63,807 nucleotides of DNA from Bacteroidales bacterium. GTDB lineage: Bacteria > Bacteroidota > Bacteroidia > Bacteroidales > VadinHA17. The notes under the pieces are model-generated. The model did not search any database. It was given only the letters and a program-made list of their open reading frames with translations, and was not told the DNA's origin. The DNA lies in contig JANYIW010000189.1 of the NCBI GenBank assembly GCA_025358645.1, positions 1 through 63,807 of the forward strand, in the 5' to 3' direction. The translations under genes were made by a program, and so were the position numbers. This document shows, in pieces, positions 16,255 to 63,807 of the stretch. Numbering within the stretch: the first letter of the stretch is position 1; every line of letters starts with the position of its first letter.

Positions 16255-17199
16255 ATGAAAAAACTAAATATTGCATTTCTTTTTTTATTATTGTCGCTAC
16301 AGCCGGTTTTAGCTCAACAAGATCCTCTGTCGAGTCAGTATATGTTCAACACTCTTACTTTTAATCCGGGTGTGGCAGGTACTTCAGGAATGATCTGTGC
16401 TACTGCTATGAACCGGCAGCAGTGGATAGGATTTAAAGGCGCTCCCTCAACAACTCTCTTTAACATAAGTTCTCCTGTTTCTCTTTTCGGCATAAAGAGC
16501 GGCGTTGGTTTGCTGGTTGAAAGCGATAACATAGGCTTTAATAAAAATATTAATCTTTCCGGATCTTACTCATACCTTATGGATCTGGGAATGGGGAAAC
16601 TCGGTATTGGCTTAAGCCTGGGTATGCTGAATACTACAATCAATCCCACGTGGGAGATACCCGTAGGTGATGCACACACTCCCGTTTCCGGCGATCCTTT
16701 GATACCCGAAAACAAAGAGAGTTATGTTGCTCTGGATGCAGGACTTGGCCTCTTCTACAAGGCAGACAAGTATTATGCTTCTCTCTCAGTCACTCACATT
16801 AATCAGCCAAAAATCAAGTTCAGTAAAGGCACGCCATATTTCAGCAGACATTACTATCTGACAAGTGGTTATAATTTACAATTGCCAAACCCATCGCTTG
16901 AATTAATCCCATCCTTCTTTGCATTCAGTGATGGAAAGGTAGTTCAGATTGCTGTAACTTCATTGATCAGATACAATAAAAAAGTATGGGGAGGCATTTC
17001 TTACAGAGCCGGAGATGCCTTGATCGGAATTGTAGGAGTTGAACTTTTTAATGGAATCAGACTTGGTTATTCTTATGATTTCACAATTTCTGATATTGGA
17101 AAAAGCAGTTCCGGGTCGCACGAATTTATGATCAATTATTGCTTCGACCTAAGCCTTGGTAAAAGCCCCATGAAATATAAAAGCATCAGATTTTTATGA
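16255..17199 (+). CDS. porP: type IX secretion system membrane protein, PorP/SprF family
   Basis: 314 aa. Signal peptide, then QQDPLSSQYMFNTLTFNPGVAG, the hallmark N-terminus of PorP/SprF. It sits immediately upstream of gldK. Confidence 0.85.
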   Translation: MKKLNIAFLFLLLSLQPVLAQQDPLSSQYMFNTLTFNPGVAGTSGMICATAMNRQQWIGFKGAPSTTLFNISSPVSLFGIKSGVGLLVESDNIGFNKNINLSGSYSYLMDLGMGKLGIGLSLGMLNTTINPTWEIPVGDAHTPVSGDPLIPENKESYVALDAGLGLFYKADKYYASLSVTHINQPKIKFSKGTPYFSRHYYLTSGYNLQLPNPSLELIPSFFAFSDGKVVQIAVTSLIRYNKKVWGGISYRAGDALIGIVGVELFNGIRLGYSYDFTISDIGKSSSGSHEFMINYCFDLSLGKSPMKYKSIRFL

Positions 17200-17246
17200 T
17201 TATTGAAAAGAAATAACTTACTTGCAATATAAAATTCTATAGTATT

Positions 17247-18590
17247 ATGAAAAAGGTAACCCTATCTGCTCTAATATTAATACTCCTGTTATCTGGTTGT
17301 GGTTCTTCAAATAACGGGGAGTTGACTGGCGTTCAGGGGCGTAAAAAATTCTTTGAGCCGGAACCCTTTGAAATGGCATTTATTCCTGCCGGGAATTTTA
17401 TTATGGGACCAAGCGATCAGGATGCCGTATGGGCAATGAACAGTATATCAAAATCTGTTACTGTTGATGCTTTCTGGATGGACCAGACTGAAATCACCAA
17501 TAACAAATATCGTCAGTTTGTTTACTATGTCCGCGATTCTATCCTCAGAACAAAACTGGGCGGTGCAAGTGTACCTGACAGGGAATATTTTTTAGCTGAC
17601 AAGGATGGAAACGTAATCGAACCAAATGTGATTAACTGGGAAGAAAAAATAAACCCCGAAGAAGAAACCACAAAGGCTACCCTCGAAGAGATGTATTATC
17701 CACCTGAAGAAAGATTTAACGGAAAAAAACAGGTTGATGTCAGAAAACTGAACTATTCATATTTCTGGGTTGATTATCAACAGGCTGCCAAATCATCTTA
17801 CAAATACGATTACGCAAGTAATACAGGTAAATACCAGGGTCAGGTAACAAATATTGACGGTACCCGTACAGATGTAAAAGACCGTTCCTCTTTTATCAAA
17901 CATAATATCATAAATATTTATCCCGATACGCTATGTTGGATACGTGATTTTACATATTCATTCAACGATCCTCAGGCATCACTTTATTTCTGGCATCCCT
18001 CTTTTGATGATTACCCGGTTGTAGGCGTGTCATGGGTACAGGCAACTGCATTCAGTATCTGGAGGACAAACTACATGAACACTGCACTAAGAAAGAATGG
18101 AGTAGCTGATGTGCATGGATACAGGCTGCCACTGGAAACAGAATGGGAATATGCAGCAAGAGGAGGCCTTGATCTTTCAATGTATCCATGGGGCGGTCCA
18201 TATACCCGAAACTACAAAGGATGCTTTCTTGCTAACTTCAAACCATTACGTGGCAATTATATTGACGACGGAAACGTATATGCAGGAAAAGTGGGTTCTT
18301 ATGAACCAAACGAATACGGATTGTACGATATGTCCGGAAACGTTTCCGAATGGACATGTTGCGCATACCATCCTTCAGCTTATATCTTCCAGCATGATCT
18401 TCAGCCAAACTATGAATATAATGCCAAACCACAGGATCCTCCTGTTTTGAAAAGGAAGGTAATCCGTGGCGGTTCATGGAAAGACATTGCATATTTTCTT
18501 CAGACAAGCGCAAGAGATTTTGAATATCAGGACTCCACAAAATCTTATGTCGGTTTCCGTAATGTCAGATCTTATATTGGTATAAATTAA
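17247..18590 (+). CDS. gldK: gliding motility / T9SS lipoprotein GldK (PorK)
   Basis: 447 aa. Lipobox LLLSGC and an FGE-sulfatase (SUMF1) fold with motifs YRLPLETEWEYAARGG, GNVSEW and RGGSW. Confidence 0.9.
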   Translation: MKKVTLSALILILLLSGCGSSNNGELTGVQGRKKFFEPEPFEMAFIPAGNFIMGPSDQDAVWAMNSISKSVTVDAFWMDQTEITNNKYRQFVYYVRDSILRTKLGGASVPDREYFLADKDGNVIEPNVINWEEKINPEEETTKATLEEMYYPPEERFNGKKQVDVRKLNYSYFWVDYQQAAKSSYKYDYASNTGKYQGQVTNIDGTRTDVKDRSSFIKHNIINIYPDTLCWIRDFTYSFNDPQASLYFWHPSFDDYPVVGVSWVQATAFSIWRTNYMNTALRKNGVADVHGYRLPLETEWEYAARGGLDLSMYPWGGPYTRNYKGCFLANFKPLRGNYIDDGNVYAGKVGSYEPNEYGLYDMSGNVSEWTCCAYHPSAYIFQHDLQPNYEYNAKPQDPPVLKRKVIRGGSWKDIAYFLQTSARDFEYQDSTKSYVGFRNVRSYIGIN

Positions 18591-18620
18591 TTAGAATTAA
18601 CCCTAAAATAATCAGGTAAT

Positions 18621-19508
18621 ATGAGCCTAGCAGAATTAGTACAAAGCAGCGGGTGGAAAAATTTCATCGCTAAACTATATGGTTTAGGTGCTTCCGTAGT
18701 TATAATTGGCGCATTGTTTAAAATACAACATTGGCGCATGGCAGGAACCATGCTTACTATTGGTCTTCTTACTGAAGCAGTAATCTTTTTCTTTTCAGCA
18801 TTTGAACCATTACATGAAGAGACTGACTGGTCATTGGTATATCCTGAGCTTGCTGGTATTCCGGAAGATGAGACACCCGAGCTTGCATCACATGGAGGAA
18901 AATACCATGGCGGCGGTTCTGGTGGTAGCGGTGGTTATGGTGGTGGCGCCGGATCAGTTGCCCTCTCTAAATTTGATGAGATGCTTGAGAAAGCAGAGAT
19001 CTCTCCTGAATTGTTCCAGAAACTGGGAGTCGGAATGAAAAAACTTAGCGAATCAACTGCAAACATGAATACTATGGGAGATGTTTCCGCAGCTTCTTCG
19101 AAATATATGAATACCATTAATACCGCTAATGATTCACTCGGGAAACTGACAGATTCATACCAGTCAACAACAAGATTAATAAATGAAACCAGCTCTTCAT
19201 ACCGCACTATGGCTGAATCATTATCAGTTATTGAAATAGGTGGAAAATCATATCAACAACAACTTGAATCACTTAACAAAAACCTATCTGCACTTAATGC
19301 TGTTTACGAACTGCAGCGTAAAGGAGCAGACAATCATCTTAAAGAATCCGATTCACTCTATATAGGAATTCAAGGTTTAATGAAAGATCTTTCAGAATCC
19401 GCCGGAGATACTAAAAAGTACCGCGAACAGATAACAAAGCTCAACGAAAACCTTTCCTCATTGAACAATGTCTATGGAAATATGCTCGCAGCTATGAATG
19501 TTAAATAA
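18621..19508 (+). CDS. gldL: gliding motility / T9SS protein GldL (PorL)
   Basis: 295 aa with two N-terminal TM helices (..GALFKIQHW...GLLTEAVIFFFSAFEP), a Gly-rich linker HGGKYHGGGSGGSGGYGGGAGS and a coiled-coil-like tail. Operon position matches. Confidence 0.85.
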   Translation: MSLAELVQSSGWKNFIAKLYGLGASVVIIGALFKIQHWRMAGTMLTIGLLTEAVIFFFSAFEPLHEETDWSLVYPELAGIPEDETPELASHGGKYHGGGSGGSGGYGGGAGSVALSKFDEMLEKAEISPELFQKLGVGMKKLSESTANMNTMGDVSAASSKYMNTINTANDSLGKLTDSYQSTTRLINETSSSYRTMAESLSVIEIGGKSYQQQLESLNKNLSALNAVYELQRKGADNHLKESDSLYIGIQGLMKDLSESAGDTKKYREQITKLNENLSSLNNVYGNMLAAMNVK

Positions 19509-19543
19509 CGTGGCTTTTTTTATCTAACTAAACTAATTACAAA

Positions 19544-21142
19544 ATGGCTCACGAAAAGCTATCTCCGCGGCAAAAGATGATCGGTATGATGTACCTGGTG
19601 CTTACCGCTATGCTTGCACTAAACGTTTCAAAGGAGGCTATTGAGGCATTCAAGAAAGTTGACATGGGTCTTACTCAGACGATCGCGAATTACACCCTCA
19701 AGAATGATGTAATATATAAAGAATTCGACAGGGCTGCCTCCGAAAACCCTGCAAAAGCCGGAAAATACAAAACTGCGGCATATCAGGTTAAAGACAGGGC
19801 CGATGAAGCATTTAATTTTATTCAGGGTCTTAAGATCGAAATAATCAAAAAAGCCGAAAAAGATCCCGAAACTCCAGCTGTAAAAGGAAATGAGGTTATT
19901 ATTGAAGAAGTGAAAAGGATTGATGATACTAATGTACCATCTGAAGTTATGATTGGCGCTAACGAAAATGGAAAAGCCAATGACCTGAAGGCTCTGCTTA
20001 TCGACTATCGCCAGTTTCTTATCACTACTCTTGAAGGTAAGAATCCTACGGCAGAAGAAGCTCTGAAAACCAGTCTTAAAACCGATGACGGGAAAAATAA
20101 AGATGGGGAAACAGAACGATGGGAGAACCTGAACTTCCAGACATTACCGCTTGTTGCAGTTATTTGTATCCTTTCAGAATATCAGCTCAATGTAAGAAAC
20201 GCGGAAACTGAAGTTCTTAACTATCTCTATACTCAGATTGATGCCTCTTCGTTCAAATTTAACAAACTAACACCAATCGTTATCCCAAATTCAAACTACG
20301 TTACCCTGGGAAGTGAATACCAGGCCCAGGTATTTATTTCTGCAACAGATACTACCCAAAAGCCTGTCATTACAGTTGGAGGAAATGCACTCGAACTTGA
20401 TGAAAGCGGGAAGGGGATTTATAAAGTACATGCTTCCGCAACAGGCCCTAAAAAATGGGGTGGGATAATCGCACTGAAAGCGCCTAACGGTTCAATTAAA
20501 AACTACTCCTTCGAATCTTCTTATGTTGTTGGTGAACCAAATGTTATTGTCTCCGCCACTGCAATGAATGTTATGTATTATGGTATTAATAACCCAATTG
20601 ACGTCTCTGTTCCTGGCATCAGTCCTGATAAATTAAAAATTAAGGTTGTGAACGGAACTTTCTCAACGGGAAAAGTTAAAAACTCCAAAGGAGAAAGTTT
20701 CAAAGGCGCCTGGGCAGTCAAACCAAATGCTGTAGGACAGAATGTTCAGGTAATTGTAACAGCTGATATTAATGGCAAACCGGTTCAGTATGCTCCTTAC
20801 GATTTCAGGGTAAAATCAATACCAAATCCGGTGGCAATTTTTGCTAATAAAAGCACAGGTACAGTTCCAAGGGCTACTGCCGCGGCACAACAGGGTGTAT
20901 TTGCAATATTACCCGATTTCGACTTTGATCTTCAATACACAGTTACCGGATTTACAGTCCTTTACTCTGATAAGGGTTCCGATTTTGAAGAATCCAGCAC
21001 AAACAGTAACCTGACTTCCAAACAAAAAGATCTGATCGGCAGACTTACCAGAGGTAAAAACTTAATTATTAAAGATATTAAAGCGCTTGGGCCTGATGGC
21101 AGAACGAAGGAACTTCTGCCTGTAATATTGAAGATTGATTAA
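19544..21142 (+). CDS. gldM: gliding motility / T9SS protein GldM (PorM)
   Basis: 532 aa. The N-terminus [27 protein letters not shown] is characteristic of GldM. Confidence 0.9.
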
Positions 21143-21162
21143 TATCAAAATATATAACCATC

Positions 21163-21984
21163 ATGAATAAAAAAATTCTTTTTGGAATTATAGGGCTCTC
21201 ACTTTCAGGCATCGTAAATGCCCAGAGTTTCGGGGATATTTACAAAAAATCGATTGTGGATGCCAAAAAAATTGAATACCCATATCTAAATGAGTCCGAT
21301 GTTATTTGGGCCAAATTTTACTACCGCATGATCGATCTGCGCGAAAAGATTAATCAACCATTATACTATCCGATAGAGACGACTCTCGATGGAAGAAAAA
21401 GTTTTATCCGCATATTACTGGATGAGATCAAAGCCGGCAGGCTTACAGCTTACGACCCTCTCAACACGGCTGTCAGTACCACCTATAATGATATAGAAGT
21501 TAAAATGGGAGCTGTTACCAAGACTGAATCAGTAATGGTAAATGCTACGCAATCACATGATACTACAATTAAGCAGGATGCAAAACCAGAGGAGGTGAAG
21601 CAACTTATGCTTTACGAAGAATGGTATTTTGATAAGAAACTCTCCAAACTCGATGTAAGAATAATTGCTATCGAACCATATTATATGGCCTTTGATGACC
21701 AGGCCGGTAGAATTCTTAAAAAGCCTTTGTTCTGGATCAAATATGATGAAGTAAGGGATGCCCTCGCGAAAAATGAAGTATTCATGAATAATAATGATGC
21801 TCAGAGAATTTCATTTGATGATTTGTTTATGCAACGCCGGTTCGGGGGCGTAATCGCCGGTGAATCAAATGTATATGACGATAGGAGAATCAATCAATAC
21901 GAGATTGGAAAAGCTTCACTGTTTGAAGCTGAACGTATTAAGACCGAACTATTCAACTTTGAACACGATCTTTGGGAATACTAA
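21163..21984 (+). CDS. gldN: gliding motility / T9SS protein GldN (PorN)
   Basis: 273 aa with a signal peptide. It is the last gene of the K-L-M-N order, and the sequence [18 protein letters not shown] fits GldN. Confidence 0.8.
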
Positions 21985-44620: not shown

Positions 44621-44828
44621 TAAAGGCTAAGTCAGTGAGAAAATCAAATATTCTGTGTTTAAATTTCCTGATACTCGTTTTTTTTAGTTGCTTTGCATCG
44701 TAATAGATTAGTGGAAAGATTTGTACTGATTGCAACCACAGGAAAAAAATGCTAAACCCGGGCCATTCCCTTTTTACAATCAAACAATTTTCCTGTATGA
44801 TGTTTAATAATAAATTAATAATATTATT

Positions 44829-53716: not shown

Positions 53717-53832
53717 AATTTTTATCATCTCCCGGCTTTCCGGGATTAGGTTTTGGCACCGTTTTCCTAATCTCAGGATTGGTTGCCAGGGTTTCGCAGA
53801 GCCTAATCTCTTCACCCTTCTTAATAAAAACC
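53717..53832 (-). promoter_or_regulatory. SAM-I (S-box) riboswitch aptamer
   Basis: The minus strand reads UUUUUAUUAAGAAGGGUGAAGAGAUUAGGCUCUGCGAAACCCUGGCAACCAAUCCUGAGAUUAGGAAAACGGUGCCAAAACCUAAUCCCGGAAAGCCGGGAGAUGAUAAAAA. It aligns block for block with the SAM-I consensus (..AAGAG.GG.G.AGGGA..GGCCC..GAAACCC.GCAACC....GGUGCCAA..CC..[P4 hairpin]..AGAUGA..), with a P1 of UUUUUAU/AUAAAAA. It lies upstream of metY. Confidence 0.85.
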
Positions 53833-57511: not shown

Positions 57512-59625
57512 TCCAGCTGCTTCTTCTGAAGATCTGCCTTCACAACTTCAATATTAATACGGTCTCCCAGAGTGTATATTTTGCCTGTTGACCGTCCTTT
57601 TATACAATAGTTCTCCTCATCATATTCATAGTAATCATCGGCAAGCTCACGGATATGTATCATTCCTTCACACTGATTCTCAATTATCTCCACATAAATT
57701 CCCCACTCTGTGACCCCTGAAATTACACCTTCAAACACCTTCCCGGTCTTATCGCTCATATACTCAACCTGCTTGTACTTAACAGATGCTCTTTCTGCCT
57801 CAGCAGCAGTCCTTTCCATCTTTGATGAGTGATTACAAAGTTTTTCATACTTATCCTTGCTACCAGGATTTTCTTCAGCAAGATAAGCAGTCATAAGCCG
57901 GTGTACCATCATGTCGGGATAACGACGTATCGGAGAAGTAAAGTGGGTATAATATTTGAATGAAAGTCCGTAATGACCTATATTGTCTGTTGAATAGATC
58001 GCTTTTGCCATCGATCTGAGAGCGAGTGTCTCAATGATATTCTGTTCCTTTTTCCCTGCCACGGAGTGCAATAATTTATTCATTGCCTTTGGCAGCGATG
58101 TCTTATCATCTTCAATCAGTTTATAACCAAACCGGGTAATAAAATGGCCGAAGTTACTTATCTTCTCCGGATCAGGTTTATCGTGAATGCGGTAAACAAA
58201 TGTTTTACCTCTGAGTTTTTTACCAACATATTCTGCAACACGTTTATTTGCCAGAAGCATGAATTCCTCAATAAGCTGATTAGCTGTACCCATTTCCCGA
58301 AATTTTATGCCGAGTGGCTTTCCTGCTTCATCAAGATCAAATCTTACTTCAATTTTTTCAAAAGCAAAAGCGCCCGAGGCAAATCTTTTTGCCCTGAGTT
58401 GCTGTGCAAGCCGGTGAAGCAAAGTGACTTGTTCTTTCATATCACCTTCGCCGGTGTCAATCACCTTCTGCGCTTCACCATAAGAGAACCTTTTATCAGA
58501 ATTGATAATTGTTCTTCCAAACCATTCAGTAATTACTTCAGACTTATCATTCAGTTCAAAAACTGCCGAATATGTAAGTTTATCTTCAGCCGGATTAAGA
58601 GAGCAGATATGATTAGAAAGTCTTTCCGGGAGCATGGGCACAACCCTGTCAACCAGATATATTGATGTGGCTCTTTGCTTAGCTTCCTCTTCCACCAGCG
58701 AATCCATTTTCACATAATGGGTCACATCGGCAATATGAATGCCAACTTCCCAGTTTCCATTCTCAAGCTGTTTAAGAGAAAGAGCATCATCAAAATCCTT
58801 TGCATCGGCAGGATCGATTGTAAATGTGGAAATTTTCCGGAAGTCGCGACGAACCTTTATATCGTTTTCTGTGATCTCCCCCCGGATTTTTTCAGCATCT
58901 GCCTCAACTTCTTCAGTAAAATTATAAGGAAGTTCAAATTCTGCAAGAATTGCATGCATCTCCGTTTCGTGGAGACCAGGATAACCAAGGACATTAATGA
59001 TCTCAGCTACAGGATTTTTCGATTTGGGGTCCCAGTCTACTACTTTTGCAACTGCTTTCTGCCCTTGTTTTGCACCATTTAGTTTGGATGTAGGTATAAA
59101 AAGGTCAAATGGCATGTTCTTGTTATCGGGAATGAGAAATGCGAAGTTGGGCATGATCTCAACAGTACCGACAAATGATGTTCTCCATCTCTCAATAATC
59201 TCAACTACCTCTCCTTCAGGTCTTGCTCCTTTCCTCTTTGCATAAAGCCATACTTTAACCTTGTCGCCATGAAGAGCTGTTTTCAGATTTTTAGCGCTGA
59301 CAAATACATCGTCCTCGAGATCGTCGGTCGATATGAAGCCATATCCCATCCGTGTCATGTCAACAGTTCCTGTGATATAACCACGGGTTATCTTTGCTTT
59401 GTACTTGCCATGAAATATCTCCTGTACAGAACCCTGTTTTGTCAGTTCCCCTAAAATATCCAAAATCAACTCTCTTCCCGGAGAATCAGTAATATTAAGA
59501 CGTTTGGCGATCTGCTTATAATTAAACCCCTGCTCGGGGTTTTTGGTCAATGCTGCAAGTATTTGTCCGGTAAGCGATTCCCTTGAAATACCGGAATCTC
59601 CATTACCCTTTCCCTTCTTACTCAT
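57496..59625 (-). CDS. rnr: ribonuclease R
   Basis: 709 aa. N-terminal HTH/OB region, RNB domain (TIDPADAKDFDDA, HYGL, FTSPIRRYPD) and a C-terminal S1 domain. Confidence 0.95.
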   Translation of the reverse strand: MSKKGKGNGDSGISRESLTGQILAALTKNPEQGFNYKQIAKRLNITDSPGRELILDILGELTKQGSVQEIFHGKYKAKITRGYITGTVDMTRMGYGFISTDDLEDDVFVSAKNLKTALHGDKVKVWLYAKRKGARPEGEVVEIIERWRTSFVGTVEIMPNFAFLIPDNKNMPFDLFIPTSKLNGAKQGQKAVAKVVDWDPKSKNPVAEIINVLGYPGLHETEMHAILAEFELPYNFTEEVEADAEKIRGEITENDIKVRRDFRKISTFTIDPADAKDFDDALSLKQLENGNWEVGIHIADVTHYVKMDSLVEEEAKQRATSIYLVDRVVPMLPERLSNHICSLNPAEDKLTYSAVFELNDKSEVITEWFGRTIINSDKRFSYGEAQKVIDTGEGDMKEQVTLLHRLAQQLRAKRFASGAFAFEKIEVRFDLDEAGKPLGIKFREMGTANQLIEEFMLLANKRVAEYVGKKLRGKTFVYRIHDKPDPEKISNFGHFITRFGYKLIEDDKTSLPKAMNKLLHSVAGKKEQNIIETLALRSMAKAIYSTDNIGHYGLSFKYYTHFTSPIRRYPDMMVHRLMTAYLAEENPGSKDKYEKLCNHSSKMERTAAEAERASVKYKQVEYMSDKTGKVFEGVISGVTEWGIYVEIIENQCEGMIHIRELADDYYEYDEENYCIKGRSTGKIYTLGDRINIEVVKADLQKKQLDYKLA

Positions 59626-59669
59626 AATTCAGTTTTTGCAAAGGTACAAAAAGGAACCATAAATTTTAA

Positions 59670-59677
59670 TACATTTG
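59670..59677 (+). promoter_or_regulatory. candidate -7 box (TACATTTG) for the PqqD-kinase-ABC cassette
   Basis: A TAnnTTTG match 19 nt upstream of ATG 59696, in the 70-nt divergent spacer with rnr. Confidence 0.45.
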
Positions 59678-59695
59678 GTTGATAATTAGAATTCA

Positions 59696-59980
59696 ATGGC
59701 AGGCCTGAAATCGATACTCTCTCAATCTACAGCAATTGTTACCAGGAAAACCGGAAATGAATATGTTCTTGTTCCTATTACTAATAACATAGCAGATATG
59801 AACAGTGTTTATACTCTGAATGAGACCGGTGCATTCATTTGGGAACATATTGACGGGAAAAGAACAGTTGAAGAAATAATCACGGAACTGATGAATGAGT
59901 ATGAGATAGACAAACAAAATGCTGAGTCAGATGTTTTTATATTTATTAGTAACATGAATAAATACCTGATTATTCATTAA
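59696..59980 (+). CDS. PqqD-family protein (RiPP recognition element-like peptide chaperone)
   Basis: 94 aa. ..YVLVP....YTLNETGAFIWEHIDGKRTVEEIITELMNEYEID...AESDVFIFISNM.. follows the PqqD/RRE pattern: a beta-strand, then 'LN.tg..iw..idG..tv.ei...l...y.v......Dv..fl..l'. Confidence 0.8.
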   Translation: MAGLKSILSQSTAIVTRKTGNEYVLVPITNNIADMNSVYTLNETGAFIWEHIDGKRTVEEIITELMNEYEIDKQNAESDVFIFISNMNKYLIIH

Positions 59981-60004
59981 TCAGGTAATTTTTTATCGAT
60001 AAAT

Positions 60005-60892
60005 ATGAGGAATTTTAATTTAAATATAGCAGGGTATAATATCGGATTTGAGGCTTCAGCTAATGCTCCGGATCTTAAGCCGTCTGCAAGATTTCTCAGA
60101 AACATAAATCAGAATAACGGAGCTGATATCCTGATACGCATTCATTCAGAATCTTTTAATCTTCCAAAAGGAGCTGAAAGGGTTTTCTGTGCTCCTTATG
60201 TTGAAGAGTTTAATGGTATCCAGCTCAATAATGTCACAAACTTCTGGAGTGTCTGGAAATATAATTCAGAACTCTATATCTGGACAATCTTTCCACTCTC
60301 TTCAACGGAAAAGAATGCAGTATTGAAATTCTCACTTACATCGATGGAATGGGACCTGTGGATTTACGGTGCCCGGGAAGAGATTGACCCTTTGGAATAT
60401 CCGCTTGATGGACTTATTCTCTATTATCTTACAGTAATAAACGGGGATATCATGATACATGCATCGGGAGTCAATAATACCGGACATGGTTACATCTTCA
60501 GCGGAGTATCAGGAAAAGGAAAGTCTACAATGGCCAAACTCTGGGAAAATTCAGGAGCCAGAGTAATACACGACGACAGGCTTATTTTAAGAAATAACGG
60601 TGGTGTTTTCAGGATGTATAATACCCCGGTATATAATGATGATGAACCGCGTGAATCGATTCTTAACAGGATTTTCATCATTGATCATGGAGCTGAGAAT
60701 CTACTTATCCCGTTAAATGGAGCTACCGCGGTAACGCAGGTAATGGCCAACTGTATTCAGCATAACTGGGGAGCGGAAATAATTGCCCGGCTTCTGGGAT
60801 CAATTTCTATAATGTGCGGGACGATCCCAACCTCAAAGCTTTTCTTCAAACCCGACAAAAGTGTAATTGATCTTATACTCGAACATGAATAA
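60005..60892 (+). CDS. HprK-like P-loop serine kinase family protein
   Basis: 295 aa. IHASGVNNTGHGYIFSGVSGKGKSTMA..VIHDDRLIL matches the HPr-kinase C-domain core (H-x-S/A-x-V...G-x-S-G-x-GKST...DD). The ~150-aa N-domain has no motif I recognise. Confidence 0.7.
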   Translation: MRNFNLNIAGYNIGFEASANAPDLKPSARFLRNINQNNGADILIRIHSESFNLPKGAERVFCAPYVEEFNGIQLNNVTNFWSVWKYNSELYIWTIFPLSSTEKNAVLKFSLTSMEWDLWIYGAREEIDPLEYPLDGLILYYLTVINGDIMIHASGVNNTGHGYIFSGVSGKGKSTMAKLWENSGARVIHDDRLILRNNGGVFRMYNTPVYNDDEPRESILNRIFIIDHGAENLLIPLNGATAVTQVMANCIQHNWGAEIIARLLGSISIMCGTIPTSKLFFKPDKSVIDLILEHE

Positions 60893-61133
60893 CGGGCAGA
60901 ACAATCATAATGGACTCATAGCCCACCGCCTTTCTAAAATAATAAACAAAAATGGCATTAATTATTACATCGCCAGGGGGGATAGTAATGCATGTCCCGA
61001 TAATCCGGTAAAAATCAGCAATATAGCAGGAAGGATTGTGGGTGCGGAGACTACCGGGTTGGGGGGTAGGATAATAAGGGTAATAAAGGATAGTAAGGGT
61101 AATAAAGAGTACCTAAATGAAGAAAAAAATTAA
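60885..61133 (+). CDS. 82-aa hypothetical protein, translationally coupled on both sides (faint S26-peptidase-like box order)
   Basis: ATG 60885 overlaps the kinase stop (ATGAATAA), and the 3' end overlaps the ABC start by 17 nt. The order YIARGDSNACP...AGRIVGA...GRIIRVIKDSKG and its spacing recall S26 boxes B (GDSMxP), C (RGDIVV) and D (KRIIGLPGD). Confidence 0.4.
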   Translation: MNNGQNNHNGLIAHRLSKIINKNGINYYIARGDSNACPDNPVKISNIAGRIVGAETTGLGGRIIRVIKDSKGNKEYLNEEKN

Positions 61134-62904
61134 TCTGTTCAGGGAATCATTAAGGCTTGTCTGGAACAGTTCCCCCGGATGGACATTTACAAATATAGTG
61201 ATGTCTGTTCTGCGGAGCATTTTCCCGCTTATTCTTATCTGGCTACTGAAAGAGGTTGTTGATGTTATCACTAAAGCCACCACATCAGGTCATCCGATTT
61301 CTGACATAAATGTTGTCTGGCCCGTTTTAGCTGTAGTTATTGTCTGGTTTCTCGATGAAGCCTCTTCTGATTTCAGCAATTATGTCCGTAAAAAACAAGC
61401 ACTCAAGCTTGAAATTTATATGTACGGACTGTTGCACTCCAAATCCATAAAACTCGATCTTATCAATTTTGAACGGCCCGAATATTTCGATTGTCTGTCA
61501 CGCGCAACAAGGGAAGCTCCCTGGCGCCCCAACAGTATCCTGAACAATATGATTTCCCTTTTCAGAGGACTTCTCTCATTGCTGCTTATTGCGGGACTTA
61601 TATTAACGCTCAACTGGACACTGGCTGTGCTCCTTCTTGTTGCAAATATCCCGGGTATCTGGTTACGACTCTATTATGCAGATATCCTCTATAATTTTCA
61701 GAGACAGCAAACACCTGAAGCAAGAAAATCTGCATATTTTAACTGGCTGCTGACAGGCGACAGACCCTCAAGGGAGCTGAGGCTTTTCGGTCTGGGAAAC
61801 TATTTCATCAGCCTCTTCAAACAATCATTCCTGAAACAGAAAGAGGAAGAGATCAACATCATAAGAAGAAGAACGCTTATTGAACTTATTTCAAACTTAT
61901 TCAAAGCATCAGCTCTTCTGATTACCCTTTTATTTATCGCACGCCAGACAATCAATGGTAAACTAACGCTTGGTCAGATGACAATGTATCTGCTTGCCTT
62001 CAGACAGGGAATGATTTATATTAAAGATCTGTTCGGGGCACTCGCGGGGCTTTATGAGGATGGCTTATTCATCGGTGATACATTTGAATTTCTGAATCTG
62101 AAAGAATATGTAACTGCAGCCGAACCGGTTATTGTTCCTTCCTCTTTAAAGAAAAAAATAGTTGTGGAAAATCTGTCCTTTACTTATCCGGGCAATAACT
62201 TCACGACAATTAATAACGTTTCATTTGAAATTAAAAAGGGCGAGATTATTGCCCTTGTCGGACCTAATGGCGCTGGGAAAAGCACACTCGTCAGACTTTT
62301 ATGCAGACTTTATGATCCTGATTCGGGAAAGGTAAAATATGATGGAAATGAAATCAGGAATATGGATCCGGAAGAGTACAGAAAACATTTTTCAGTTGTT
62401 TTTCAGGATTTTATGCTATATAATCTTCCTGCCGGAGAGAATATCCGCATGGGTAATATTGATGAAAAGAGTTCAGCCGGTAAAATAAAAGTTTCAGCCA
62501 CTACGACCGGGATCCATGAATTAATCAATAGTCTGCCAAATGGTTATGAAACAGTAATCGGGAATCTTTTTGACGACAGCCGCGAACTCAGTTGGGGAGA
62601 GTGGCAAAAGATTGCCCTGGCGAGAGCTCTCTTCAGGGATGCCCCTGTACTTATACTTGATGAGCCATCCAGTGCGCTTGATGCCGACACGGAGCATGAT
62701 ATTTTCAGCCGGTTCAGAGAGATTGTAAAAGACCGTACATCAATCCTCATCAGTCACCGGTTTACAAATGTCACTCTTGCCGACAGGATAATTGTACTCG
62801 ATAAAGGATCAATTGCAGAAACTGGTACTCATGATGAACTGATGAAGAGTGGCGGATTATATTTCAATATGTTCACAAAGCAGAGCAGCAGATTTAATAC
62901 ATAG
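61117..62904 (+). CDS. ABC transporter permease/ATP-binding fusion (exporter type, McjD/MsbA-like)
   Basis: 595 aa with a 6-TM domain. Walker A GPNGAGKST, atypical signature LSWGEWQK, Walker B LILDEPSSALD, and an H-loop SHR. Confidence 0.9.
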   Translation: MKKKINLFRESLRLVWNSSPGWTFTNIVMSVLRSIFPLILIWLLKEVVDVITKATTSGHPISDINVVWPVLAVVIVWFLDEASSDFSNYVRKKQALKLEIYMYGLLHSKSIKLDLINFERPEYFDCLSRATREAPWRPNSILNNMISLFRGLLSLLLIAGLILTLNWTLAVLLLVANIPGIWLRLYYADILYNFQRQQTPEARKSAYFNWLLTGDRPSRELRLFGLGNYFISLFKQSFLKQKEEEINIIRRRTLIELISNLFKASALLITLLFIARQTINGKLTLGQMTMYLLAFRQGMIYIKDLFGALAGLYEDGLFIGDTFEFLNLKEYVTAAEPVIVPSSLKKKIVVENLSFTYPGNNFTTINNVSFEIKKGEIIALVGPNGAGKSTLVRLLCRLYDPDSGKVKYDGNEIRNMDPEEYRKHFSVVFQDFMLYNLPAGENIRMGNIDEKSSAGKIKVSATTTGIHELINSLPNGYETVIGNLFDDSRELSWGEWQKIALARALFRDAPVLILDEPSSALDADTEHDIFSRFREIVKDRTSILISHRFTNVTLADRIIVLDKGSIAETGTHDELMKSGGLYFNMFTKQSSRFNT

Positions 62905-63141
62905 CCGGACGGAGCCAACTATACCGCCGCGCTCCTTTTCCGCAGAAAGAGGCAGATAAAGTCTACGTACCCAGTCAATGGGCAACACCCCAAAAATATT
63001 TTTTATCAAGGGAGATCTGGTAAATTTGAATTATTTTCAAACAAAACATAAAATAATTCGAAATTTATTTGGTTGTTATCATCTTTTTTGTTTAATTTTA
63101 TAATTGAAGTCAATTGCAAGGCAATATTAATTCTGGTAATA

Positions 63142-63351
63142 ATGAACAAGTTTCAGAAAGAGACTTTCAAGATTAGGTTGCTAAAACTTGCTGCGTTAAA
63201 ATGCACGGGGTCACCTAATGATCTGGCTTTAAGATTTGAGATTAGTGATCGAAGTGTAAAGAGGATTGTTAAGGAACTCCGCGAAGAAGGGACGGACATC
63301 AGGTATAGTCTGTCAAGGAGATCTTATGTGACAGATAAATATTATCAATAA
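63142..63351 (+). CDS. small HTH-domain protein (DeoR/HTH_11-like)
   Basis: Preferred start is MNKFQKETF (the track ORF begins at 63073). GSPNDLALRFEISDRSVKRIVKELREEG is a helix-turn-helix pattern. 69 aa. Confidence 0.55.
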   Translation: MNKFQKETFKIRLLKLAALKCTGSPNDLALRFEISDRSVKRIVKELREEGTDIRYSLSRRSYVTDKYYQ

Positions 63352-63605
63352 TATGTTGTATAACATATCAACTGATCATTTTTCTGTCCCTGTGGTTTTT
63401 TACCTTGCATTAAATAGTTAATGTCATTCGAGTTCTCATGAGTTTTAATTTAGCAAATATCAGCATCGGGGTGTGTACCAGCGAAAGGAATTTTAGGTTT
63501 TCCGGGTATTCAGCACATTCTGGTTTCACAGGTCTTTTCTCGCTGCGTTTTTCGTGCTTTTTGTCTCGTTCTTATGAACAGTAGGTCGTCCTGACCGAGA
63601 CCCCG

Positions 63606-63642
63606 CCCCGGAGGATTGCTGATTATTTTCCGGGGTTTTTTT
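63606..63642 (+). terminator. Rho-independent terminator
   Basis: The stem CCCCGGA (63606-63612) pairs with TCCGGGG (63629-63635), followed by a 7-T run (63636-63642). It lies 255 nt downstream of the HTH gene with no ORF in between. Confidence 0.7.
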
Positions 63643-63807
63643 ATGTGCTCATCGCCCCTGCCCCTTCTCTTACGAATTATTGAAAAAAGACGGTCATTGC
63701 GAGGAGCGAAGCGACGAAGCAATCTCCTGCGATCAAAACAAAACAAGGTAAATTGCATAATTAACGATGACACTATCTTCTCTGAGAGCATTTTCTTTCT
63801 TGTATAA

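Follow-up and report, generated by a model that had tools for sequence, protein, structure and literature searches.

Layout of the cassette

We analyzed a cassette of four co-directional genes near the end of a 63,807-nucleotide (nt) stretch of DNA from a Bacteroidales bacterium (GenBank assembly GCA_025358645.1, contig JANYIW010000189.1), referred to here as the window, and compared it with the clusters that encode linear polyphosphorylated peptides (LPPs), a kind of RiPP (a peptide synthesized by the ribosome and modified post-translationally) whose gene names we use throughout. An earlier annotation made from the letters alone (the sequence-only reading) had placed four packed open reading frames (ORFs) at this locus, with a 24-nt gap followed by overlaps of 8 and 17 nt, and our search re-found these coordinates exactly. 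The first, second and fourth genes (lppB, lppK and lppD) have no frameshifts or stops and are predicted to be intact and translationally coupled, while the third, an ORF of 82 amino acids (aa), retains both coupling overlaps. The features of the locus are as follows.

59670-59677, plus strand: candidate Bacteroidetes-type -7 box TACATTTG, which matches TANNTTTG exactly and lies 19 nt upstream of the lppB (PqqD) ATG
59696-59980, plus strand: lppB-like discrete RiPP recognition element (RRE) of the PqqD family, intact, 94 aa
60005-60892, plus strand: lppK-like P-loop kinase of predicted HprK/PEPCK fold, intact, 295 aa
60455-60469, plus strand: kinase motif IHASG
60503-60529, plus strand: kinase Walker A motif GVSGKGKST
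60566-60580, plus strand: kinase motif IHDDR
60885-61133, plus strand: putative remnant of lppS, a SipW/Sec11-type S26B leader peptidase, 82 aa from ATG or 88 aa from an upstream TTG
61117-62904, plus strand: lppD-like MsbA-type ATP-binding cassette (ABC) half-transporter, intact, 595 aa
62905-63144, no strand: site occupied by lppN in most relatives; gene cleanly absent in the window, no tblastn remnant
63145-63351, plus strand: small helix-turn-helix (HTH) protein, a conserved downstream neighbour, 68 aa from ATG, with weak HTH_28 and HTH_11 matches

The candidate -7 box, which the sequence-only reading had also picked out, sits in a divergent spacer of about 70-71 nt between the RNase R and PqqD genes, the length of which is kept in most relatives. 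Across the window the TANNTTTG pattern occurs 76 times versus 66 expected and is not enriched, position being the sole support for this promoter element.

LPP clusters have been described in Bacillota (Bacilli), including Paenibacillus alginolyticus DSM5050, by Popov et al. (Nat Commun, May 2026; PMC13381572). Their core genes are arranged in the order lppA-K-B-S-D-N, where lppA encodes the precursor with the leader motif YxxPxVLxHQxIxFETxxS, lppK an HprK-like kinase, lppB an RRE, lppS a SipW-like signal peptidase I, lppD an MsbA-like pump and lppN an NTP transferase (PMC13381572). LppK polyphosphorylates Ser3 of the core, and LppS (catalytic S29/H68/D93) cuts the leader only with LppB and is inactive as S29A; phosphorylated full-length precursor accumulates when lppS is deleted, and deletion of lppN has no visible effect (PMC13381572). 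These peptides were stated to be restricted to Bacillota (PMC13381572).

A predicted leader peptidase reduced to a remnant

The closest relative of the window (locus L004, 94-99% aa identity) carries an intact peptidase gene of 156 aa in place of the 82-aa ORF. Its product scores 55.2 bits against TIGR02228 (archaeal-type signal peptidase I; cut-off 51.85) and also matches Pfam Peptidase_S24. In the DNA alignment of the two loci, the window is missing 174 nt in frame, equal to 58 aa and including the Ser nucleophile box, with the deletion junction at 60906|60907. The 3' end is rearranged as well, the C-terminal ~40 aa (a hydrophobic helix) being replaced by unrelated sequence from 61058 on. 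Retention is limited to 51 aa from the centre, where AHR (the His box, 60921-60929) and GDSN (60978-60989) are found. The invariant features of the peptidase family are GxSMxP, HR and GDS...D, and the window copy is the only one in the family alignment that misses GxSMxP. The family profile matches human SEC11C and SEC11A (E 1.4e-10) and aligns with Bacillota LppS in hhalign (99.6%, E 2e-24), with a catalytic spacing (Ser33-His72-Asp97) equal to that of LppS S29-H68-D93.

These alignments identify the 82-aa ORF as a deletion remnant of a predicted SipW/Sec11-type leader peptidase, LppS. The sequence-only reading had described a minimal gene set with no protease, a description that has to be revised, as the small ORF is the wreck of a putative dedicated leader peptidase from which the Ser box and the C-terminal helix have been deleted. 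Since the Ser nucleophile is gone and the S29A variant of LppS is inactive (PMC13381572), the remnant would have no cleavage ability. Independent assemblies of three sequencing runs (L001-L003) all contain the same 82-aa allele, which is therefore no assembly artefact. Contigs bearing the kinase, retrieved by exact-protein look-up, are at most 3.4 kb long, and a search of protein records for the exact ABC and HTH proteins of the window found none on record.

Recognition element, kinase and exporter

Back-translating the LppA motif to DNA retrieved 48 LPP loci from Bacilli for tblastn, and proteins of the window or its relatives match K, B, S, D and N in these loci. The window RRE, against the corresponding gene, shows 28-38% identity with E down to 4e-11. 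It passes the Pfam PqqD model (E 6.6e-19, 68.4 bits with a cut-off of 23.4), which bears out the earlier assignment, and its best NCBIfam match, lasso_PqqD_Bac, stays under the cut-off (50.9 bits, cut-off 80).

The HprK-like assignment of the 295-aa protein did not carry through curated hidden Markov models (HMMs), where scores against TIGR04355, TIGR04249 and TIGR04352 were 24-34 bits, under cut-offs of 125-200. HprK_rel_A (TIGR04352) gave 24.4 bits where 200 are needed and HprK/P (TIGR00679) 13.4 bits where 240 are needed. A PDB sequence search with the kinase had no match and a fold search was needed instead. The AlphaFold2 model built from 77 homologues reached a predicted local distance difference test score of 92.1, and the best 50 of 54 Foldseek matches in the PDB with E <= 0.001 are all PEPCK or HprK/P. 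In addition, the profile aligns with that of Bacillota LppK over 254 columns (hhalign, 99.7%, E 6e-26), and all family-invariant residues are kept (H152, S169, G170, G172, K173, T175 and D191). The model, the fold matches and the profile-profile alignment thus confirm the assignment as a predicted HprK/PEPCK-fold kinase of the LppK type.

The weak curated matches bear on an alternative in which the locus would belong to Haft's SynChlorMet (SCM) radical-SAM (S-adenosylmethionine) cassettes or to the HPr-rel-A system. We consider this very unlikely. The window does match ScmC, ScmD and HprK_rel_A/B weakly and carries a weak precomputed Pfam PF27840 'ScmC' label, yet ScmC reaches 25.9 bits of 125 and ScmD 40.4 of 100, with HprK_rel_A as given above. 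A likeness of another kind is found in a distant relative on a contig binned as Gammaproteobacteria (L084-L088), ordered PqqD, radical SAM/SPASM, a 57-aa Cys-rich ORF, kinase, S24, ABC and NTP_transf_5, in which the radical SAM gene and the Cys-rich precursor lie between RRE and kinase. The L084 radical SAM protein is nevertheless not ScmE or ScmF (90.7 and 81.8 bits, 400 needed), and no curated family matches it above cut-off. The sequence-only reading had noted the missing radical SAM partner, and this stands: the sole CX3CX2C ORF of the window is 23 kb from the cassette, and no radical SAM gene lies beside the cassette in four Bacteroidota/Chlorobi loci with Pfam-labelled neighbours.

The exporter carries Pfam ABC_membrane and ABC_tran domains, with MsbA as the best NCBIfam match, under its cut-off. 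Against Bacillota LppD it has 34-40% identity over the nucleotide-binding domain in most LPP loci (tblastn, typical E 1e-44 to 1e-52). Walker A (62260-62286) and the H-loop are normal, and the unusual signature LSWGEWQK pointed out earlier is present at 62587-62610 in place of LSGGQ. This deviant signature is kept in 50 of 50 Bacteroidota relatives checked; locus L092 has LSIGQWQK, and Bacillota LppD the canonical LSGGQ.

Conservation and gene loss among relatives

Kinase relatives number 5176 at the 50%-cluster level (E <= 1e-3). We fetched 80 related loci with the kinase, from Bacteroidales metagenome-assembled genomes, mostly of peat, fen and soil, with flanks of up to +/-10 kb. Synteny holds throughout, in the order IspG, RNase R, then divergently PqqD, kinase, a gene X, ABC, in part of the loci a gene Y, and HTH, and the chromosomal position is constant across a clade whose kinases have diverged to ~53% identity. 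Gene X is the peptidase (~150 aa), intact in 67 of 73 scorable loci, broken in four and wholly absent in two (L009 and L068). Gene Y, found in 44 relatives with its start 3-6 nt past the ABC stop, encodes an NTP_transf_5 nucleotidyltransferase of ~390 aa (PF14907, E 2e-44), corresponding to lppN. Among 68 scorable loci lppN is present in 44, a remnant in two and absent in 21. In close relatives the five-gene cassette B-K-S-D-N is what is commonly found, not the minimal set described for the window, which has lost the fifth gene. The loss is clean in L004 as well as in the window, where tblastn found no remnant in the window tail and the DNA aligns to L005 on either side of the gene. The B-K-D trio without S and N occurs in three independent lineages, namely the window, L009 and L068, with full-length genes in the latter two.

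Such losses could mean that the window locus is a non-functional relic, in which precursor, peptidase and NTP_transf_5 have been lost and the intact lppB, lppK and lppD reflect the recency of decay, not function. We hold this tentatively, at a probability somewhat short of even. Of the six LPP components, three are either absent from the window or dead there, S and N have been lost repeatedly among relatives in the numbers given above, and mobile PDDEXK_3 genes and repeats have been inserted within the operon of relatives. Decay alone sits less well with L009 and L068, which have lost S and N wholly and still keep B, K and D at full length, with the overlaps preserved by the remnant ORF, with the constant chromosomal position, or with the lack of frameshifts and stops in the window genes. 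The ratios of nonsynonymous to synonymous substitution (dN/dS) against L004 are 0.105 for lppB, 0.214 for lppK and 0.077 for lppD, like the 0.136 of the housekeeping neighbour IspG, and suggest purifying selection on all three genes, with the limit that these values average both lineages and are no proof of selection after the peptidase deletion.

Natural fusions join K to S, B to K and S, and S to D (P0124, P0126, P0128, P0204, P0142, P0154, P0137 and locus L092), which argues that the parts are functionally tied. The fusion in L092 (11423-13699) places the peptidase at the N-terminus of the ABC exporter in a protein of 758 aa. Beyond the close relatives, a Chlorobi neighbourhood (L089) reads PqqD, a 47-aa ORF, kinase and S24, and Bacteroidota loci L090-L092 have the cassette with NTP_transf_5, the ABC exporter being present in some and not in others. 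When the distant protein P0244 served as query, only four homologous proteins were returned, the contexts of which are informative. The cluster at L084 1007-8433 (also in L085, L086 and L088) can be seen as a hybrid in which a thioether-type maturase joins a leader and machinery of LPP type; its Cys-rich precursor includes KYEKPVLEKVKIERDLSLRMATCACNHPSPFSDNCW, and a second radical SAM gene lies on the other strand.

As the sequence-only reading had stressed, an asparagine-synthetase-like cyclase is missing: neither the window nor L001-L083, among which are the 80 relatives, contain an ORF of at least 250 aa with the SGGxDS PP-loop signature, and ~90 Bacteroidota/Chlorobi cassette loci have no ORF with this signature, so the cassette recurs without a cyclase. 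The four loci with Pfam-labelled neighbours contain no B2 protease, Asn_synthase or radical SAM gene, and no transglutaminase-like B2 was seen in the window by eye, its ORFs not having been HMM-scanned singly. Homologues are thus not confined to complete lasso clusters. This leaves as most improbable the view that the cassette is a fragment of a phosphorylated lasso cluster (of paeninodin, Bsf or pseudomycoidin type), with its cyclase and B2 located outside the window. The window does stop 900 bp past the exporter, the RRE has lasso_PqqD_Bac as its best NCBIfam match, and such clusters are known to carry K, N, B1 and D genes as accessories (PMC8498205, PMC10368454). A lasso origin is, however, at odds with the empty PP-loop search and with the Pfam-labelled neighbourhoods of distant members (including those of L084 type), which have neither Asn_synthase nor a transglutaminase-like gene. 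The family moreover has its own putative SipW-type leader peptidase in place of B2, and the flanks are the conserved housekeeping genes RNase R and IspG.

Precursor genes in a sister clade

A predicted precursor family exists for this cassette type in a sister clade of Bacteroidota (L083 and L093-L099), the kinases of which share 46-49% identity and the ABC proteins 64-67% with those of the window. Here, LppA-like ORFs (MKKIYKKPEIKKIDLDNSISL..., with a YxxPxI leader; for example MKKIYKKPEIKKIDLDNSISLVMQTTTPVNPTPRGGGKGSDDSPFDDDKPFG) are located 170-880 nt downstream of lppN. The small ORFs share the leader K-x-Y-x-K-P-x-[IL]-x-K-[IV]-x-[IL]-[DE]-x-x-[IL]-S-[LM], and the variant YxKPxIxKIxLDxxISL follows lppN in L083/L093-L099 and lies beside the RRE in L089 and L084-L088. 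The register from Tyr to [S/T] is 15 residues in both Bacteroidota and Bacillota precursors, and both groups have cores rich in Pro, Gly and Asn ('NPTPRGGGKG' versus 'NPNPTPGGAG'). Locus L093 (1763-6820) and likewise L094-L099, from several Bacteroidota metagenome-assembled genomes, contain a complete six-gene cluster of LPP type, with RRE, kinase, S26B peptidase, ABC, NTP_transf_5 and a precursor of 52-60 aa (MKKIYKKPEIKKIDLDNSISL...). On a 3-kb Bacteroidales contig (L100 1856-2032) an LppA-like ORF (MKQHKNIQKKIYQKPEIKKVNLDNMSTLYMVSEH...) has no cassette gene beside it and is possibly a precursor encoded apart from its enzymes.

No lppA was detected within the 63.8-kb window, and the substrate of its cassette may be encoded elsewhere. 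One way to picture this is a peptidase-independent module, in which LppB, LppK and LppD would act on a precursor in trans and export the phosphopeptide leader-on or otherwise trimmed, or would pump the LPPs of neighbours. We regard it as rather unlikely. Consistent with it are the retention of the B-K-D trio in three independent lineages without S and N, the apparent purifying selection on these genes, the solitary LppA-like ORF of L100 and the behaviour of Paenibacillus mutants, in which delta-lppS still phosphorylates the precursor and delta-lppN shows no detectable change (PMC13381572). Set against these, searches of the window and of the +/-10 kb flanks of close relatives found no candidate precursor, the collection-wide scan for the leader pattern found none either, and no LPP system is known to export an unprocessed precursor.

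Several small ORFs were considered as precursors and rejected. Those beginning 'MEEN/D...' between peptidase and exporter are alternate-frame artefacts of conserved LWKK codons running into repeats, and the ORFs that relatives carry between RRE and kinase are PDDEXK_3 (GxxExxY) insertions and repeats like repetitive extragenic palindromes (REP). Insertions of a 129-aa PDDEXK_3 gene (GxxExxY-type) and of REP-like repeats recur in this spacer (L006 9543-9932, L007, L014, L021, L030, L034, L055 and L063), which is only 24 nt long in the window and in L084 also houses the radical SAM gene and the precursor. The double-glycine peptides that relatives encode 3-6 kb downstream are part of a distinct C39-ABC/HlyD/CPBP locus on the minus strand and are not LPP precursors.

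Assignment to the LPP kind

In our view the locus is, with high probability, a Bacteroidales LPP RiPP cluster that has been inherited vertically and has become reduced. Homology of every part present places it, as predicted from the genes, with the LPP kind, and as a working cluster it fails three defining features, an active LppS, LppN and LppA. A number of points weigh against this assignment. Identity to the Bacillota proteins is low (20-40%), the Bacteroidota members are known here from genes alone, and the exporter, the role of which is predicted, has a deviant signature. The Bacteroidota precursors are without Ser at core position 3, the target of LppK in Paenibacillus. A precursor HMM built from the Bacteroidota peptides had no match in the window or L004-L078, clustering of small intergenic ORFs across loci yielded nothing beyond PqqD, the HTH protein, antisense shadows and repeats, and the genome-collection scan for the leader pattern yielded no locus from the window's clade. 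The first two of these searches agree with the earlier observation of no credible precursor in or beside the operon.

The steps of the proposed mechanism were shown in Paenibacillus (PMC13381572) and are carried over to the window's family by homology. The discrete RRE (LppB/PqqD) would bind the YxxPx[V/I/L] motif in the precursor leader, and LppK would repeatedly phosphorylate a hydroxyl residue close to where the core begins. LppS, with its SipW/Sec11-type Ser-His-Asp triad, would remove the leader only when the RRE presents the precursor, the MsbA-like LppD would export the linear phosphopeptide, and LppN (NTP_transf_5) probably decorates the product further. The window cassette would at most dock, phosphorylate and export a precursor from elsewhere without leader removal of its own, or else be in early decay.

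Given LPP identity, we weigh residual function and a relic roughly evenly. A more far-reaching proposal, which we consider doubtful, is that LPP-type clusters are ancient and vertically kept in a whole Bacteroidales family, in contrast to the published picture of a weapon confined to Bacillota and shuffled horizontally, and that the trio of RRE, kinase and exporter keeps its own function even after S and N are lost; this could be leader-on export of a phosphopeptide from a distant gene, or pumping out or tolerating the LPPs of neighbours.

If the assignment to the LPP kind is right, LPP-type clusters complete with precursors exist outside Bacillota, contradicting the published restriction (PMC13381572). 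The machinery would be widespread in Bacteroidota and found also in Chlorobi and, on a contig binned as Gammaproteobacteria, in a hybrid that includes radical SAM. One Bacteroidales lineage of peat and soil has the cassette at a fixed housekeeping position, where it appears to lose its parts in a repeatable order, and its members offer a set of natural 'deletion mutants' with which the need for each step can be probed. These observations speak against a role that is purely conflict-driven and spread by horizontal transfer. The Bacteroidota precursors offer a second, divergent set for mapping kinase and peptidase specificity, and the window copy is a degraded example instead of a new system.

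Other features of the locus and the window

The HTH protein is conserved downstream of the cassette in ~40 relatives and is a possible regulator, though as a candidate member only. A paralogue (HTH_11, E 5e-6) is encoded within a neighbouring class II bacteriocin locus of relatives, which lies on the minus strand downstream of the cassette, beyond the window end (L006 15900-20880, L011, L012, L016-L019, L042 and L049). This separate locus includes a C39-peptidase ABC transporter, HlyD, several double-glycine-leader peptides, CPBP/Rce1-like immunity proteins and the HTH_11 protein.

About 90 nt after the HTH gene, a conserved element of ~30 nt (ATGAGTTTTAATTTAGCAAATATCAGCATCGG, window 63438-63470) is found that also occurs in ~20 relatives and has no Rfam match. 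It seems likelier to be a DNA or RNA element than a peptide, because ORFs starting there drift in frame between relatives. A 10-bp perfect inverted repeat spans the PqqD stop (59963-59987) and is followed by a T-run, resembling a terminator (-12.5 kcal/mol); we rejected it as a functional element, as it is not conserved even in L004. An Rfam search of 59400-63807 found no RNA family.

The remainder of the window is housekeeping by eye, in keeping with the sequence-only reading, and includes glmS, panCD, radA, topA, gldJLMN, trpS, rpoN, asnS, metK/F/H, cysS, ispG and rnr. Two SAM riboswitch classes are present. SAM-I (S box; 53719-53830, minus strand) is upstream of a block of O-acetylhomoserine sulfhydrylase, homoserine dehydrogenase, metH and metF, and SAM-II (long-loop; 44705-44765, plus strand) is upstream of metK. 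A gliding-motility/type IX secretion block at 16255-21984 encodes PorP/SprF-like and GldJ-like proteins, GldL, GldM and GldN, judged by eye from the translations.

Comparison with known systems

SynChlorMet (TIGR04248-04251) resembles the cassette in that a ScmC-like P-loop protein adjoins a PqqD-family RRE, to which L084 adds radical SAM/SPASM and a Cys-rich precursor. It differs in that scores are far under the curated cut-offs and no radical SAM gene accompanies the cassette in the window or in the Bacteroidota relatives with Pfam-labelled neighbours. We know of no described S26 peptidase or NTP_transf_5 partner for it. Literature searches for ScmC or SynChlorMet returned only unrelated acronyms, and those for the Pfam/TIGRFAM accessions nothing relevant.

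The C39-ABC exporters of class II bacteriocins also couple leader removal to export, and the S26B-ABC fusion of L092 is analogous to them. They use a C39 Cys peptidase and a double-Gly leader, in contrast to the S26B Ser-His-Asp enzyme and YxxPxI leader here, and cleavage in the LPP type depends on the RRE.

Phosphorylated lasso clusters (paeninodin, Bsf, pseudomycoidin) share with the cassette an RRE-assisted HprK-like kinase that acts on the linear precursor, an NTP-transferase, an ABC exporter and a leader with YxxPxL at -17 to -12 (PMC10368454). The cassette is distinct in having no Asn-synthetase-like cyclase or B2 and a predicted S26B serine peptidase for the leader, and its product is presumably linear.

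With respect to the Bacillota LPP clusters, the differences are the phylum, the gene order (B-K-S-D-N(-A) instead of A-K-B-S-D-N), a Bacteroidota leader without the HQxIxFET part, a core without Ser3 and the exporter signature (LSWGEWQK instead of LSGGQ). The Bacteroidales cassette is vertical at a fixed housekeeping position, whereas the Bacillota clusters are patchy and lie beside capsule loci, and in the window lppS is a dead remnant by prediction, with lppN and lppA absent. The correspondence is nonetheless family-wide: the discrete PqqD-type RRE, the HprK-like kinase, the SipW/Sec11-type Ser-His-Asp peptidase, the MsbA-like exporter and NTP_transf_5 are all homologous, neither system has a macrolactam cyclase, and the Bacteroidota precursors have the YxxPx[V/I/L] leader, a hydroxyl residue 15 after Tyr and a core with much Pro, Gly and Asn. 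The linear, phosphorylated and exported peptide envisaged by the sequence-only reading was thus right in kind, as the homology to Bacillota LPPs suggests (PMC13381572), with the window copy as a reduced derivative.

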